A DNA stretch of 64,000 bases from NCBI GenBank assembly GCA_965262245.1, contig OZ253507.1, positions 2,268,690 through 2,332,689 on the forward strand, given 5' to 3'. The position numbers and the translations under genes are program-made. Shown here one piece after another: positions 8,829 through 22,226 of the stretch (position 1 is its first letter; the number at the start of each line of letters is the position of its first letter). The notes below the pieces were generated by a model, which made no database searches, was not told the origin of the DNA, and saw nothing but the letters and a program-made list of their open reading frames with translations. The stretch is from Candidatus Marinacidobacterales bacterium (GTDB taxonomy: Bacteria > Acidobacteriota > Vicinamibacteria > Marinacidobacterales > SMYC01).

Positions 8829-10040
8829 CTACTGTTCGCGATCGTACGGGTGGCGAAGATAGTCGGCCGCCGTTCCGTGCGTGCCGTCGTAATCCGGAAG
8901 CTCTTGGACACGGCGATAATGCGCCGTGGCCTCTTCGCGGCGCCCCATTGTGTCGAGGATCTCGCCCGCGCGCAGATGTGAGAGGGCCCTCTCACGGTCG
9001 GGGGTCCCGGGGTCTTCCGCGGCGCCGCGAAACTGATCGAGCGCTTCATCTTGGCTTCCGAGCGCAAGCAGTCGTTGTGCGAGCGGATAGCGAATTTTGT
9101 CGAGCGGAAGGTTCTGATAGTTCGGAATCTTGTTGACAGCGCGCCGCGCGACCGTCGCGTAGGTTTTCGCCGCCTCGGCGTGCTTTCCCATCAGCTCCAA
9201 TATCTGGGCTTTATTGATATGCAGCAAGTAGTTTTCTGGATATTTGTGGTGCAGTTGCCCCGCCATCTCCAGGGCGTAGGCGTTCTCGTTCTCGCGGACA
9301 TACATGACCATCAGCAGCAGGCGGGCGTCGTCTTTGACGAAATGGCCCTTCGTCGCGGCGCGGGTGAGATATTCGAAGCCCCGGACTTCACTGCCGTGAT
9401 AGCCCGCAAGGGTGGCGATCCATTTGACGTACCAGGGAAGATTGCCGACGACATATTCGTAGGTCCCGACCGTCATGTACGCGTCATAGAAGTCGGGATT
9501 CTCGTCAACGATCGCGCGCTGGATACGATAGGATTCCTTGCCGTATTTGAGCGCCTTGCGAAAGCTTCTTTCGATGGTGAAGGCGAAAACGCCGAGAGCG
9601 CTCTGGCATGCGCCGAGGTAGTAGCGAGCCTCGAAATCTCTCGGATGTTGCTCGAGATAGCGTGTCGCGTTCTCCTGGCTCCGCCGAATGCCGTCGAAAA
9701 AAGCCTGTTTGTCCTCCACGGATATTTCCACGTCGGCCGGCCGGGTGAAATATCCCGGCGAGATGAAGCGCTCGAGGTCGAGCTCGTCGCGAGCGACGAG
9801 CTCACGAAACCAAATGGCGATCGATCGGGCCAACGGTGGCCCCGGATGGTGGGGATATTTTTTTTCGAGCTCGCTGAAGAAAGCGATGCTCTTGTCGTGC
9901 TCGAGGCTGTAGAGGTGGGTGTTCCCTTGGAGGCTCGCAGCCTTGTATTCGGGACTTCTCAGCTTCTCGGCGCTCGCCGCCACAGGCAAAGACGTTGCCA
10001 AAAAGACTCCCAACATACAGGAGCTAAACCCGAATCGCAT
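8829..10040 (-). CDS. Secreted TPR-repeat protein
   Basis: Signal peptide MRFGFSSCMLGVFLATSLPVAASA, followed by TPR-like helical repeats (YYLGACQ..., AYALEMAGQL...). Confidence 0.55.
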   Translation of the reverse strand: MRFGFSSCMLGVFLATSLPVAASAEKLRSPEYKAASLQGNTHLYSLEHDKSIAFFSELEKKYPHHPGPPLARSIAIWFRELVARDELDLERFISPGYFTRPADVEISVEDKQAFFDGIRRSQENATRYLEQHPRDFEARYYLGACQSALGVFAFTIERSFRKALKYGKESYRIQRAIVDENPDFYDAYMTVGTYEYVVGNLPWYVKWIATLAGYHGSEVRGFEYLTRAATKGHFVKDDARLLLMVMYVRENENAYALEMAGQLHHKYPENYLLHINKAQILELMGKHAEAAKTYATVARRAVNKIPNYQNLPLDKIRYPLAQRLLALGSQDEALDQFRGAAEDPGTPDRERALSHLRAGEILDTMGRREEATAHYRRVQELPDYDGTHGTAADYLRHPYDREQ

Positions 10041-17263: not shown

Positions 17264-17290
17264 ACTCGGGATTATCCTACAATCCGCTCT

Positions 17291-17820
17291 GTGGGTGTTC
17301 TGCTACTCGAAGAAGTCGACGAAGCGAAGCTCGGGAAGCTGCTCTTGCGCTACGGCTTGTCGCTGAACCACGTTCCCGCCGGCCGCGCGATACCTGGAAG
17401 TTATTGGGGCGATAGCGAAGCGGGTCTCGTCGAAGATCAGCTCTATGCTCGGCCCGACACGCCGATCCACTCCGTGCTGCATGAAGCGTCGCATTTCGTG
17501 TGCATGAACCCATCCCGCCGCGCCTGTCTCGAGCGCGACGCGGGCGGCGACGACGTTGAAGAGAGCGCGGTTTGTTATCTCCAGGTGCTCTTGTCCGATC
17601 ACATTTCGCAGATGGGCCGCGATCGAATGTTTCGCGACATGGATAGCTGGGCTACAGTTTTCGTTTGGGCTCGACGAAGAGCTGGTTCGACGAGGATGCC
17701 GAGGACGCGCTATCTTGGCTTCGAGCCGAAGGATTGGTGGATGAGAAGGAGGCCGCTCTTTGGGTCGGGGCAAGAATAAACTACCAAGTCTTTGTCGTAA
17801 TTCATCTGCTGCAGGGATAA
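17291..17820 (+). pseudogene. Small hypothetical protein with HExxH motif (HEASH); frameshift near 17645..17670
   Basis: The N-terminal part is in the frame of ORF 16616..17779 (...IHSVLHEASHFVCM...). A clearly protein-like C-terminus (STKSWFDEDAEDALSWLRAEGLVDEKEAALWVGARINYQVFVVIHLLQG) is in a different frame and ends at 17820. GTG start. Confidence 0.3.
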
Positions 17821-17920
17821 CGATCCGAGCCGGCGGGAAGCGGATCGCCTGGCGGGACCGCGTCAAATGGAGCTATTTGCAGCTCTTTGAGAGCTTGCCC
17901 ATGGAGACGTAGGCCATTGT

Positions 17921-18724
17921 GTGTTATGGTTACGAATTATGATTCGTAACTCTGATATTGACCGCCTGCGGGGGTTGTTTGCCAAACGTCTCATCGCCAC
18001 CATGGACATGCTCAAGAAGACAGTGGGGACTGTCGCTGACCTGACGGTGTTCCGGAAACTGAGAGAGCTCGACTACTGCACCAGCTATTCGCACCGTGGA
18101 CGTTTCTACACGCTCCGAGAGCTCGCGGAGTTTGATGAGAACGGCTTGTGGTGGATTCGGTCCGTCGGCTTTTCAAGTCGAGGGACACTCGTCGCCACGG
18201 CCGAAGGACTGGTGAACGCCTCCGAGGCTGGCTACGCGGTGGAGGAGCTTGATGCCATTGTTAGGGTTGGGACCAAAGATGTGCTGCCGAAATTGGCCTG
18301 GGAGAAAAGACTTCGCCGCACTCGGATTAGAAATCGCAATGTCTACTTCTCTCCGAAGAGGAGCATTCGTGAACAGCAAATAGCCAGCCGACGTGTTTGG
18401 GAAGCGCAACCCTCTGTGTCCAAGAGTATTGCTGCTCAAGACGTCCTACCCGATGAGCTCAAAGCAGCCATCATCCTTTTCTTTAGCCTGCTCGATGAGA
18501 GAGAAAGGCGTGTGTATGCGGGGCTTGAATCTCTCAAGTTAGGTTATGGCGGTGACCGCCAGATGGCGGAGATCCTCGGGCTCGACGTTAGCACTGTGGC
18601 TCGGGGCCGTCGCGAGCTACTTGAGCATGATGTGAATGTGGAGCGGGTCCGAAAAGCGGGTGCCGGCCGCAAAGCTGTCGAAAAAAAACGCCAGAAGTCA
18701 TCGCGGCGATCGAAGAACTTATGA
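17921..18724 (+). CDS. ISAzo13-like transposase OrfA (HTH part); GTG 17921 or ATG 17939 start
   Basis: The C-terminal part matches ISAzo13-family N-terminal HTH regions. It ends just after an A8 run (18681..18688) where the frame of OrfB takes over. Confidence 0.65.
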   Translation: MLWLRIMIRNSDIDRLRGLFAKRLIATMDMLKKTVGTVADLTVFRKLRELDYCTSYSHRGRFYTLRELAEFDENGLWWIRSVGFSSRGTLVATAEGLVNASEAGYAVEELDAIVRVGTKDVLPKLAWEKRLRRTRIRNRNVYFSPKRSIREQQIASRRVWEAQPSVSKSIAAQDVLPDELKAAIILFFSLLDERERRVYAGLESLKLGYGGDRQMAEILGLDVSTVARGRRELLEHDVNVERVRKAGAGRKAVEKKRQKSSRRSKNL

Positions 18725-19662
18725 AGTACGAGGTCGCTGGCGATCCCGTCAGCGGTCTGAGATGGACTCGCAAGACCACGAAAAAAATAGCTGCCGAACT
18801 CTCGGCCTTGGGCATTCGCGTCAGTCGCAAAACCGTCGCGAAGCTGCTTAAACAGATGAACTTCTCACTCCGGACCAACAAAAAGAAGATCTCGAATGGC
18901 TCTCCTCCAACTCGCGACGCCCAGTTCGCCAACATCACACAGCTACGGGAGCGCTTTAGCCGACGTGGCAATCCCATATTGAGTGTCGACACCAAGAAGA
19001 AAGAGTTGGTCGGACGCTTCAAGAACCCAGGACGCGTCTGGGCTCAAAAGAGCGATGCCGTCAACGACCACGACTTTCGCTCCATGGCAGATGGGGTCGC
19101 AATCCCATACGGCATCTATGATCTCCAGAGTAATCGAGGCACCGTGTATGTCGGAACGTCTTACGACACGTCGCAATTCGCAGTCGAATGCATCGAGAAG
19201 TGGTGGCGCTCTGAAGGTCAGAAGCGTTTTCCCGGCCGCAAACATTTACTTGTCGTAGCTGACACTGGCGGAAGCAACGGCGCAACCCGCCGTGCATGGA
19301 AACACGGCATCCAGCACAAGCTGTGCAACGAGCACGGTTTGGACGTCACGGTCGCACACTATCCACCAGGTGCGTCCAAGTGGAACCCAATCGAGCACCG
19401 CCTGTTCAGCGAGATTAGCAAGAATTGGGCGGGCTGGCCGCTCGATAGCTACGAAACCATCCTGAACTTCATACGGACCACCAAGACCAAAACGGGGCTC
19501 AAGGTTAACGCCCGTCTCGTCAAGAAGCAGTATCCTAAGGGCATCAAAATCTCGGACCCTGCGATGGCGCTACTCAACATCAAAAAATCCTCTTCCCTGC
19601 CGAAGTGGAACTACACGTTGCGTCCATCTAAGAATGGGAAATTATTTCTGCCACGGTCCTAA
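18721..19662 (+). CDS. ISAzo13-like transposase OrfB (DDE catalytic part)
   Basis: The frame continues upstream of its ATG as ...KKTPEVIAAIEELMKYEVAGDPVSGLRW, which matches the usually contiguous ISAzo13 transposase. This implies an OrfAB fusion by -1 frameshift at A_AAA_AAA. Confidence 0.7.
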   Translation: MKYEVAGDPVSGLRWTRKTTKKIAAELSALGIRVSRKTVAKLLKQMNFSLRTNKKKISNGSPPTRDAQFANITQLRERFSRRGNPILSVDTKKKELVGRFKNPGRVWAQKSDAVNDHDFRSMADGVAIPYGIYDLQSNRGTVYVGTSYDTSQFAVECIEKWWRSEGQKRFPGRKHLLVVADTGGSNGATRRAWKHGIQHKLCNEHGLDVTVAHYPPGASKWNPIEHRLFSEISKNWAGWPLDSYETILNFIRTTKTKTGLKVNARLVKKQYPKGIKISDPAMALLNIKKSSSLPKWNYTLRPSKNGKLFLPRS

Positions 19663-19685
19663 AGGCGACGCCGCGCGATTACGAA

Positions 19686-20651
19686 CTAGCTGACCATCGG
19701 AGCTTTGCTGTGGCGCTTCTCTTCCGGGCCCCTTCGATCGGACAAGAAATTGCTGCCTTCGGATTGCTTCAAGTAGCGTTTGATCTCCGCTGCGCGCTCG
19801 GCGAGGATGCGGTGGCTCTCGAACTTCTTCTCGTCGTTGTTGACCGCGGCGATGGTGATTGTCATGAGCGGATAGCGCTTGGGCTCGCCGGAGTGGGATT
19901 CGAGCGTAATACCTTGGTTCTGGCGGTCTTCCTCGGCGTAGAACTGGGCAATGCTCGCGTCGAAGATCGCCATGATGGCATGGCTGAGCTCGGCTTCTCT
20001 GTCCGGAGTCGTCACGAAGACGAAATCGTCGCCTCCGATATGTCCGACGAAATCCTGCTCTCCGCCCATTTTGTTCACGGTTTGCACGATCAACTGAGAC
20101 GTGTGCAACAGCACGCGATCGCCGGCCGCGTAGCCGTAGCGATCGTTATAGGCCTTGAAGTTGTCCAGATCGCAGTAACACACGGAGAAGGTGACGCCGT
20201 TCTCCAGCCGTTCGCGCACGAGTTGCTCGATCACGAGATTGCCCGGGAGCTTCGTGAGCGGATTCACATTCGCTTGCTCTGACGTCCGTCGGATGAGCGT
20301 CTCGACCCGGGCCTTGAGCTCCTCGGGATCGATGGTCTTCATCACGTAGTCGTCGGCGCCCTTGGCGAGGCCCTCGATCTTCCGGCGCACCTGGTCTTCC
20401 ACCGTCAACATAATGATGGGGATGAAGCGCGTAGCGAAATGCTGACGGAGCTCCTGGCAGACGTCCGGTCCCGTCATGTCTCCGAGATGCACATCCATGA
20501 GGATCAGATCGGGAAGCTCGCGCTTGGCTTTCTCCACGGCCACCGCACCGCTCGCCGCGGTGATCACTCTGTAGTCCCATTCCAGCAACAGCTCCCCGGT
20601 GAGCTGCAGACAATCCACGTCGTCATCAACGATCAAGACTTTATCGGCCAT
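19686..20651 (-). CDS. Response regulator with receiver domain and GGDEF-type output (motif GGDDF)
   Basis: REC domain (LIVDDD...DLILMDVHLGDMTG...), then a diguanylate-cyclase-like domain (CYCDLDNFKAYNDRYGYAAGD...VGHIGGDDFVFV). It is an orphan, flanked by IS elements. Confidence 0.8.
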   Translation of the reverse strand: MADKVLIVDDDVDCLQLTGELLLEWDYRVITAASGAVAVEKAKRELPDLILMDVHLGDMTGPDVCQELRQHFATRFIPIIMLTVEDQVRRKIEGLAKGADDYVMKTIDPEELKARVETLIRRTSEQANVNPLTKLPGNLVIEQLVRERLENGVTFSVCYCDLDNFKAYNDRYGYAAGDRVLLHTSQLIVQTVNKMGGEQDFVGHIGGDDFVFVTTPDREAELSHAIMAIFDASIAQFYAEEDRQNQGITLESHSGEPKRYPLMTITIAAVNNDEKKFESHRILAERAAEIKRYLKQSEGSNFLSDRRGPEEKRHSKAPMVS

Positions 20652-20799: not shown

Positions 20800-22226
20800 A
20801 GGATATCCTGAATCTAGTTGAAATCGGTGAGTGACTCCCTTCAAGATCGTCGGTGTCAAAGCTGGCGATCAAAAAGAAAGGAGCCACCCGGTGAGAGCAG
20901 ATACGAAGAAGAGAAAGAATGCAACACAGATGCTGAGGGCGACGCAGGAGCAAGAGTGGTGGGCGGATCAAGTTGTGCATGTGATGCTGGAGGGCAAGCG
21001 AGCGCTGGACGCCGCGATGCTCGATGTCGGACGCCTGGTAGCTGAGACGCTCATGTACATGGAGCGCGAAGAGAGATCTGGGCCAGACTACCATCCTACG
21101 TCGTCCGGGCTTCGCAAATGGGCGAGTCAACGTGGGTCGATCTATGTCGGTGACCAGAAGCTCCCTGTCGAGCACCCTCGATTGCGGGGCCCGGAGGGTG
21201 AGGTCGGGCTGAGAACCTACGAGCAGCTCAAGAATCGCGGGGGCTTTTCGGAGGAACTCCTGTCGGAGGTGCTTCGGGGAATGTCTGCTCGCAAGTACGA
21301 AGAGACGGTGACGGCGGCAGGCAAGGCTTTCGGTGTGACGCCGAGCTCGGTGTCCCGCCATCTGGTCGAGGCGACGGCGAAGCAGCTGAAGCAGTTCCAG
21401 GAGCGCAGTCTCGAAGAGTTTCCGCTCTTCGCGATGTACCTAGACACGGTCCACCGCGGCGGTCAGGCGTTCGTGGTCGCGCTCGGCGTGGACCGTGAAG
21501 GGAAAAAGCTCCCCCTGGGCTTCTGGGAAGGGGCGACAGAGAACCACGAGATCTGCGAGGAATTGCTGGAAGAGTTGGAGCGACGGGGGTTAAAGCTCTC
21601 CAAACGGATCCTCTGGGTAACCGATGGTGGCGGGGGGATCATCAAGGCGCTCAAAGACCGATACGGTAAGAAGCTCATCCACCAGCGGTGTACTTTGCAC
21701 AAAGACCGCAACATCCAGCGCCACCTGCCCAAACGCTACCGCAAGCAGGCACACCACCTCTTCGCGACTGCCTTGGAGCAGAACAGCTACAAGGACGCGA
21801 AGAAGATGTTGCAGGAGTTCGAGCGCTGGCTTCGCGACATCAACGAGTCGGCGGCAGACTCACTCCTCGAGGCACTCGAGGAGGTGCTGATGCTCCACAA
21901 GTTGAAGGTCCCCGCTCTACTGCGCCAGAGCCTGCACTCGACGAATCCTATAGAGAGTATGTTCTCCATGGTTCGTAGTTGCGAGCGCAACATCAAACGC
22001 TACCGTAACAGCAAAATGCGCCAGCGATGGCTCGCCGCTGTGCTGCTGCACTGCGAACAACAGTTCAGACGAGTCAAGGGGCACGCATCCATCGACGTAG
22101 TGGTTGCGGCCATCGATGCGATCCAACGAGAGGACGAGATGCCTGAGGCCGCGTAAGGTCAGGGGCGTAGAGCTGGAAATGACCACGAGTCGCTTATGAT
22201 GGTTTCAACTAATTCCTTGACATCCT
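20800..22226 (+). mobile_element. IS256-family insertion sequence (~1.43 kb) with imperfect 25-bp IRs and a 9-10-bp target duplication
   Basis: IRL GGATATCCTGAATCTAGTTGAAATC (20801..20825); IRR reverse-complement GGATGTCAAGGAATTAGTTGAAACC (22201..22225). Flanking direct repeat CACCAAAATG at 20790..20799 and 22227..22236. Confidence 0.85.
20930..22156 (+). CDS. IS256-family (mutator-type) transposase
   Basis: Motifs FAMYLDTVHRGG, LWVTDGGGGIIKAL, QRCTLHKDRN, STNPIESMFSMVR. ~409 aa from ATG 20930; the ORF also has an upstream GTG at 20831. Confidence 0.85.
   Translation: MLRATQEQEWWADQVVHVMLEGKRALDAAMLDVGRLVAETLMYMEREERSGPDYHPTSSGLRKWASQRGSIYVGDQKLPVEHPRLRGPEGEVGLRTYEQLKNRGGFSEELLSEVLRGMSARKYEETVTAAGKAFGVTPSSVSRHLVEATAKQLKQFQERSLEEFPLFAMYLDTVHRGGQAFVVALGVDREGKKLPLGFWEGATENHEICEELLEELERRGLKLSKRILWVTDGGGGIIKALKDRYGKKLIHQRCTLHKDRNIQRHLPKRYRKQAHHLFATALEQNSYKDAKKMLQEFERWLRDINESAADSLLEALEEVLMLHKLKVPALLRQSLHSTNPIESMFSMVRSCERNIKRYRNSKMRQRWLAAVLLHCEQQFRRVKGHASIDVVVAAIDAIQREDEMPEAA

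Follow-up and report, generated by a model that had tools for sequence, protein, structure and literature searches.

A near-invariant A8 run as a probable programmed recoding site between OrfA and OrfB of an ISAzo13-family insertion sequence

The 64-kb stretch of DNA analysed here (the window) contains an insertion sequence of the ISAzo13 family in which the transposase is divided between two overlapping reading frames, OrfA and, at −1 relative to it, OrfB, and in which the junction of the two is occupied by a run of eight A's that is very probably a programmed recoding site. Ribosomal −1 frameshifting at the run would, in our estimate, be the main route of this recoding, a view that we hold with appreciably less assurance. 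The layout of the reading frames, the slippery heptamer in phase with OrfA, its conservation, and the continuity of the predicted fusion with single-ORF members of the family were all observed directly. An A_AAA_AAA heptamer at the OrfA/OrfB junction of an ISAzo13-like transposase was what the initial annotation had described, and both its phase and the −1 position of OrfB were borne out. The locus thus offers what is looked for in a programmed −1 site, i.e., ORFs that overlap at −1, homologues in which the two parts are contiguous, an in-phase heptamer and conservation beyond coding need; a stimulatory element (a 3′ structure or a 5′ Shine–Dalgarno-like sequence), which is common but not obligatory at such sites, was not found.

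In the window copy the run is written G-A8-C and is read by OrfA as …GTC GAA AAA AAA CGC CAG…, with the P-site codon AAA at 18683–18685 and the A-site codon AAA at 18686–18688 (the features of the element are collected in Table 1). Beyond the run, OrfA continues for 11 sense codons (33 nt) and its TGA is the 12th codon, an earlier count of 12 codons past the run being correct only if the stop is included; upstream of the ATG, a GTG at 17921 provides an alternative OrfA start in an open frame. The −1 frame, entered at the codon ACG (Thr, 18688–18690), reads TPEVIAAIEELMKYEVAGDP… and is open through 19662. Its stop in the window copy, TAA at 19660–19662, falls within the flank of the element because the stop used by the family, at 19642–19644, reads TTA here. 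For OrfA and OrfB to form a single ORF the run would have to be A9 or A6, since the removal of one A leads into the third frame and not into OrfB, and the comparison of A7 with A8 that had been proposed as a check should therefore be one of A9 with A8. Runs of eight A's are not in themselves exceptional: two were found in the window versus 1.08 expected, so the run alone is not beyond chance, and what does go beyond it is where this run lies and how well it is conserved. The other A8 of the window (9858–9865, − strand) was considered as a frame break and rejected, as it lies in frame, encoding E-L-E-K-K-Y-P, inside an ordinary 403-aa ORF (8829–10040). No tRNA genes were found within the window.

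Table 1. Features of the insertion sequence in the window, and variant junctions among the diverged relatives (L numbers)
Feature	Position	Strand	Remarks
ISAzo13-family insertion sequence, 1,898 bp	17762..19659	+	Limits of similarity to six sibling copies at other sites
Left terminal inverted repeat, GGGTCGGGGCAAGAATAAAC	17762..17781	+	Imperfect; GG at start
Palindrome GTTACGAAT-TATG-ATTCGTAAC	17929..17950	+	Perfect 9-bp stem; OrfA start codon in loop
OrfA, 261 aa	17939..18724	+	ATG 17939 to TGA 18722–18724; N-terminal domain and first helix-turn-helix; standard decoding
A8 run	18681..18688	+	Conserved in relatives; heptamer A_AAA_AAA at 18682–18688
OrfB frame, −1 relative to OrfA	18688..19662	+	Second HTH-like region and complete DDE_Tnp_ISAZ013 catalytic domain
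Palindrome ATCGCGGCGAT	18700..18710	+	No predicted stimulatory structure
Second A run, A7	18781..18787	+	In frame within OrfB (T-K-K-I); A8 in sibling L005
Right terminal inverted repeat (reverse complement GGACCGTGGCAGAAATAATT)	19640..19659	-	Imperfect
L013, L026, L041			A7, in phase, OrfB at −1
L029			CTA AAA AAG, i.e., A_AAA_AAG on an A6 run, OrfB at −1
L024, L039, L078			One lineage; run begins at codon position 3
L014, L070			A9 through substitution, not insertion
L035			CAA AAA AAA
L036, L052 (A7), L007 (A9)			Indel variants, broken
L008			Distant relative, single ORF

That the two frames together encode one protein was indicated by profile searches. A Pfam search placed OrfB in PF07592 (DDE_Tnp_ISAZ013) at 2.9e-120, with positions 2–308 of the 308 in the model covered and weak HTH-like matches preceding the DDE domain, and gave no match to OrfA at E<0.01. 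Of OrfA, the C-terminal 70 residues only (183–253) correspond to a part, positions 3–76, of NF033519, the NCBIfam equivalog model for ISAzo13 transposases (387 positions); nothing was matched in the N-terminal 180 aa. The predicted fusion, a 574-aa OrfAB (…AVEKK-TPEVIAAIEEL…, with the junction peptide …VEKKTPEVIAAIEELMK), scored 481.6 bits against this model, for which the cutoff is 200, and the match ran from position 3 to 387 unbroken across the junction, positions 3–76 being in OrfA and the remainder in OrfB. Since the model spans the junction, the OrfAB fusion is taken to be the real transposase, and both the PF07592 domain and the NF033519 score place it in ISAzo13. ISfinder describes ISAzo13 elements as single-ORF, of ~1.25–2.2 kb, with imperfect inverted repeats beginning G(a/g) and target duplications of 0–4 bp. 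The size of the element in the window and its imperfect, GG-initiated ends agree with that description, the window copy itself being without a target duplication. In members of the family from cultured organisms, e.g., ISStsp1 of Streptomyces, one ORF crosses the junction and there is no A run there.

Evidence for a programmed site also came from diverged relatives. The sample comprised 80 metagenomic loci with 53–69% amino acid identity, which formed 56 clusters at 80% nucleotide identity and came mostly from short-read (JGI, SPAdes-type) assemblies of many projects. The −1 two-ORF layout together with an in-phase A_AAA_AAR heptamer was present in 76 of them. In 66 the run is exactly G-A8, starting at the second position of an OrfA codon (GAA AAA AAA) and with OrfB at −1, and a canonical G-A8 member occurs in 44 of the 56 clusters; ten further loci hold the −1 layout with an in-phase A_AAA_AAR. 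The minimal element common to all 76 loci is the in-phase heptamer, and the exact length of eight equals the heptamer plus the adjoining bases of the flanking Glu (GAA) and −1-frame Thr (ACN) codons. The spelling is far from what codon usage predicts, E-K-K being written GAA-AAA-AAA at 66 loci versus an expectation, from each locus's own codon usage, of ~8.5 of 79. Upstream of the run the weakly conserved position is position 3 of the 0 frame (0.35 bits), and from the first codon past the run it is position 3 of the −1 frame (0.61 bits); as the wobble frame switches exactly at the run, selection must be acting on the fused −1 reading. The OrfA stop lies 9–33 nt past the run in the canonical loci (9 nt in 42 of 66), and in L010, L030 and L014 a stop in the OrfB frame abuts the run, two features that locate the shift in the run itself.

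A lineage (P0220; L089–L094, e.g., L091 at 2303–2312) with an interrupted run, GAAAACAAAC, and OrfB still at −1 was considered as a counter-example and set aside. In L089, L090 and L092, which come from three samples, the interrupted-run copy has the same downstream genes beside it, apparently one chromosomal locus, and the lineage is probably an immobilised copy. A different ISAzo13-type element, found in 10 places in the record of a Microvirga lotononidis plasmid (L087, 2062–2070; NZ_CP141049.1), has its junction in frame and changes frame (+1 downstream) at an A9 within the catalytic SVDSKKKELVG motif; this A9 may be another type of A-run recoding site, or else an indel of the assembly.

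None of the elements that commonly assist ribosomal frameshifting was detected around the run. A conserved 3′ hairpin or pseudoknot was not found (RNAalifold, applied to 95 nt of 67 sequences, predicted 0 pairs), the 3′ fold of the window's own sequence had a z-score of −1.07, i.e., no stimulatory structure, the wobble positions of upstream Gly codons were not enriched for Shine–Dalgarno-like bases, and an Rfam search gave no match at the site. The small palindrome ATCGCGGCGAT, to which attention had been drawn earlier, does exist, but it lies 11 nt and not 9 nt past the run, is unconserved, and no role for it was detected.

The lack of a detected ribosomal stimulator gives some weight to a possible, if rather unlikely, alternative in which the recoding is programmed at the level of transcription: RNA polymerase would stutter on T8 and add a non-templated A, and some of the mRNAs, now A9, would encode OrfAB, a protein identical to the product of frameshifting. 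A pure homopolymer is present, 8 A's long in 66 of the 80 loci and 9 in a few. There are precedents: Baranov et al. described IS elements that slip on A9, and in D. radiodurans and Nostoc on A8 (PMC1088944), and the transcriptional realignment sites listed by Antonov et al. include An with n>7 (PMC3711429). The homopolymer needed for RNA-polymerase slippage is at least 9, or 8 in some bacteria, which makes A8 borderline (PMC1088944). However, the lineages with A6G (L029) and A7 (L013, L026, L041) keep the in-phase heptamer and the −1 layout, and on 6–7 A's very little slippage is to be expected. The length of eight, moreover, is fully explained by the heptamer with its Glu (GAA) and Thr (ACN) codons, and the runs have not been lengthened in evolution, though longer ones would slip better. 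The retention of the layout in the A6G and A7 variants, the in-phase heptamer common to all 76 loci and the explained length led us to favour ribosomal frameshifting over slippage of the polymerase.

The nearest relatives of the window copy required separate consideration, since they are not uniform at the run. Six siblings share 99.3–99.4% identity with the window element and have unrelated flanks: L001–L004 are on ENA metagenome contigs, from assemblies ERZ25074053, ERZ21829562 and ERZ25071132, and L005 and L006 are in two 'Candidatus Marinacidobacterales' MAG chromosomes. In L001–L004 (99.4% identical, four insertion sites) the run is A9 and there is one uninterrupted 568-aa ORF, which reads …AVEKKTPEVIAAIEEL…, exactly the predicted fusion; these four have an identical transposase protein, intact target duplications and 0–3 DNA differences. 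The window copy, L005 and L006 have A8, i.e., three independent A8 copies in the lineage, and a scan, with a variable-length gap, of species-representative genomes other than the window's own gave two copies, both A8. The seven near-identical copies differ by three indels, each of them in an A run, a pattern that would fit slippage in replication as well as homopolymer errors of long reads; one of the three is the A8 of L005 at the second A run (A7 in the window), which breaks OrfB. Divergence is greatest in the window copy, which has 9 private substitutions, an extra A at its left end and the family stop changed to TTA.

Such data could be taken to mean that the gene is simply broken, the A9 single ORF being ancestral and the A8 of the window either a deletion that inactivates it or a homopolymer miscalled in a long-read assembly. 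The four A9 copies with their 568-aa ORF, the concentration of indels in A runs (including one that breaks OrfB) and the private substitutions, lost stop and missing target duplication of the window copy all speak for this reading, and we nevertheless consider it quite improbable. A pseudogene or assembly error should appear as a sporadic break without a motif, whereas 76 of 80 diverged relatives, mostly from short-read assemblies, keep OrfB at −1 and have the same run, and there are three independent A8 copies in the window's own lineage. In addition, an OrfA-only protein (P0121, 261 aa, near-identical) with the window's exact post-run tail, …EKKRQKSSRRSKNL, stands for a cluster of 271 members, versus clusters of 1–9 members for the fused forms of that lineage, and in sister lineages with 84–87% identity OrfA ends with the same post-run tail. 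From the sizes of these clusters it follows that A8 is the majority state in the window's lineage and A9 the exception; the latter may have been derived as a 'constitutive' variant, or may reflect a homopolymer miscalled from long reads. Since copies inherit the run of their donor and A8 is dominant at many sites, the distribution also implies that A8 elements would be able to transpose.

The initial annotation had offered a programmed −1 OrfAB fusion and a homopolymer indel as alternatives, and had leaned towards the first. The first is supported by the 76 of 80 relatives, the wobble switch at the run and the 271 versus 1–9 cluster sizes, and the A8/−1 layout, being the norm across diverged relatives, makes the second quite improbable. 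Sibling copies with an uninterrupted ORF and another run length had been named there as grounds for abandoning a programmed shift; taken literally, L001–L004 are such copies, but the 80 relatives overturn that conclusion, and a criterion confined to siblings is too narrow.

Several protein sequences read through the junction by another path. In P0004, P0005 and P0010, from the window's lineage, A8 is compensated by another 1-nt indel close to the run, and the same kind of compensated read-through is seen in P0020, P0026, P0028, P0036, P0045 and P0062, from the clade at ~55% identity (examples are 'EKKRQKFIAAIEEL' and '...SCRKKTPEV'). Such proteins may come from true pseudo-revertants with a fused transposase, or from errors of assembly. 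P0006 and P0024 come from one 10.2-Mb NCBI contig that has both a fused and an OrfB-only call.

That OrfB is instead made as a second, separate protein, from its own start or by reinitiation and with no fusion, is highly improbable: gene callers do routinely give OrfB-only (315–320 aa) and OrfA-only (249–263 aa) products, and the window copy has an ATG (MKYE) 33 nt past the run, but no conserved OrfB start codon was found (an ATG stands at the position of this Met in no more than 30 of 66 loci, and 13 have the non-start codon CTC there), the amino acid conservation in the −1 frame (T-P-E-V/I-I) begins directly at the run, upstream of any candidate OrfB start, and neither the family model nor the single-ORF relatives show a break at the junction.

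The mechanism that we propose is accordingly one of programmed −1 frameshifting by the ribosome. Standard translation would yield OrfA (261 aa), the DNA-binding N-terminal part of the transposase, stopping 33 nt past the run. Some ribosomes, a minority, would slip back by one base at GAA AAA AAA while tRNA-Lys occupies both their P and A sites, then read ACG CCA GAA… and proceed through OrfB. The product would be the 574-aa OrfAB, with both helix-turn-helix regions and the DDE catalytic domain, as the active transposase, and a low rate of slipping would keep transposition low. OrfA alone is probably an inhibitor or regulator that acts by binding the ends of the element, by analogy with InsA of IS1 and OrfA of IS3/IS911. 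The ribosomal nature of the slip, its efficiency and the regulatory role of OrfA are what we infer from the observed layout and its conservation.

A more elaborate version, which we regard as unlikely and put forward tentatively, would have the run working at two levels: A8 would recode at a low level, and replication slippage to A9, or a compensating indel close by such as those of P0004, P0005 and P0010, would produce a heritable constitutive fusion and bursts of transposition, followed by reversion or decay, i.e., a phase-variable 'throttle'. The four A9 copies (L001–L004), at different sites, with intact duplications and an identical protein, fit such a burst.

The ends of the element were taken from the sibling alignments because its terminal inverted repeats are too imperfect for the inverted-repeat finder, which missed them over 17700–19900. 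In the sibling consensus the right and left ends match at ~19 of 30 positions, and at 17778 the left end of the window copy has an additional A that no sibling has. A 3-bp duplication, TWA, in a CTWAG target is seen in five of the six siblings (L001–L004 and L006). No target-site duplication was found for the window copy, which is flanked by TTT (17759–17761) and TAA (19660–19662), and its absence suggests recombination between two copies or mutation of a flank. The palindrome at the OrfA start codon has a stem of 12 bp in the siblings and is specific to the window's lineage. In most other members of the clade (the OrfA start regions of L009–L086), AACTATAACATTATG is strongly conserved just at the OrfA start and might serve as a −10 box from which a leaderless mRNA is transcribed.

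The surroundings of the element hold some features of their own. The gene upstream (~17277–17761, + strand) has an apparent frame change near 17650, around a short G/T homopolymer, and its 3′ end runs into the left end of the IS; the gene may have suffered a frameshift as well as truncation by the insertion. Roughly 1.2 kb downstream of the element there is an ORF (20831–22156, + strand) that by eye resembles transposases of the IS256 family (Transposase_mut-like), and between the two transposase loci is one (19686–20651, − strand) that by eye is response-regulator/GGDEF-like. The sibling copy L001 likewise has an adjacent Transposase_mut gene.

Control of transposase synthesis by frameshifting is textbook knowledge in the case of IS1 and IS3, and IS5 and IS630 are also known to use it. 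In IS1 the transposase is the fused product and the shorter protein an inhibitor; at IS3-family sites a hairpin or pseudoknot is usual downstream and a Shine–Dalgarno-like element frequent upstream. The closest parallel to the element described here is IS1 insA/insB′ (A_AAA_AAC), in which, likewise, the upstream ORF is DNA-binding, the catalytic ORF is at −1 and the shift takes place at an A-rich heptamer, the two ORFs overlapping only very briefly, with no established 3′ stimulatory structure (PMC4066793). It differs from IS1 in having an ISAzo13/PF07592 transposase, A_AAA_AAA within A8 and a much larger OrfA (261 aa) with an extra N-terminal domain, and in being known from sequence alone. 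With the IS3 family (IS911, IS150, IS3; A_AAA_AAG or A_AAA_AAA) it shares the OrfA/OrfAB logic and the Lys-Lys class of heptamer, the relative L029 even using A_AAA_AAG, whereas the downstream hairpin or pseudoknot and the Shine–Dalgarno-like element are not conserved here, and the transposases are unrelated besides the DDE fold (the match to NF033516 was only 21 bits). The likeness to IS3-type elements that had been suggested at first thus holds for the layout; there is no IS3-like 3′ structure, and the site is closer to that of IS1.

The elements in which transcriptional realignment occurs on A8–A10 (Deinococcus radiodurans, Nostoc, Mesorhizobium) also have a conserved A run at the orfA/orfB junction, and those of Nostoc, like the copies here, vary by ±1 in run length among near-identical copies (PMC1088944). 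In the clade described here, by contrast, the run is mostly 8 and never >9, and variants with 6–7 A's keep the layout. The single-ORF ISAzo13 elements (NF033519; ISStsp1) are alike in their transposase (481.6 bits) and size range, but have no A run at the junction, and it is the present clade that splits the transposase, at model position ~76.

The heptamers A_AAA_AAA and A_AAA_AAG account for 72% of those in IS1 and IS3 family elements (PMC4066793), and a 2016 review gave the frameshifting IS families as IS1, IS3, IS5 and IS630, those four only (PMC5009743). Among the papers that could be searched, none links ISAzo13 with frameshifting, the single one to contain both words being unrelated, and PF07592 is not mentioned in the text of the GeneTack supplements. 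What is new, then, is a probable ISAzo13 frameshift strategy with a near-invariant A8 in a large environmental clade; the IS1/IS3 logic, and the heptamer class, which is the commonest, were known.

A specialist is unlikely to be surprised by the finding, and its use lies in annotation and in a natural test case that is without structure. Thousands of OrfA-only and OrfB-only proteins of this clade are in the public databases, their loci now entered either as pseudogenes or as a pair of transposase genes, 'hypothetical' or truncated, and each such locus should be annotated as one programmed-frameshift gene. For the same reason, differences between A8 and A9 at this site in long-read MAGs are not to be 'polished' away. 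For the biology of these elements, the apparently stimulator-free site would offer a clean case of what A_AAA_AAA alone, or transcription of A8, may achieve in non-model phyla, the Acidobacteriota and the PVC group among them.
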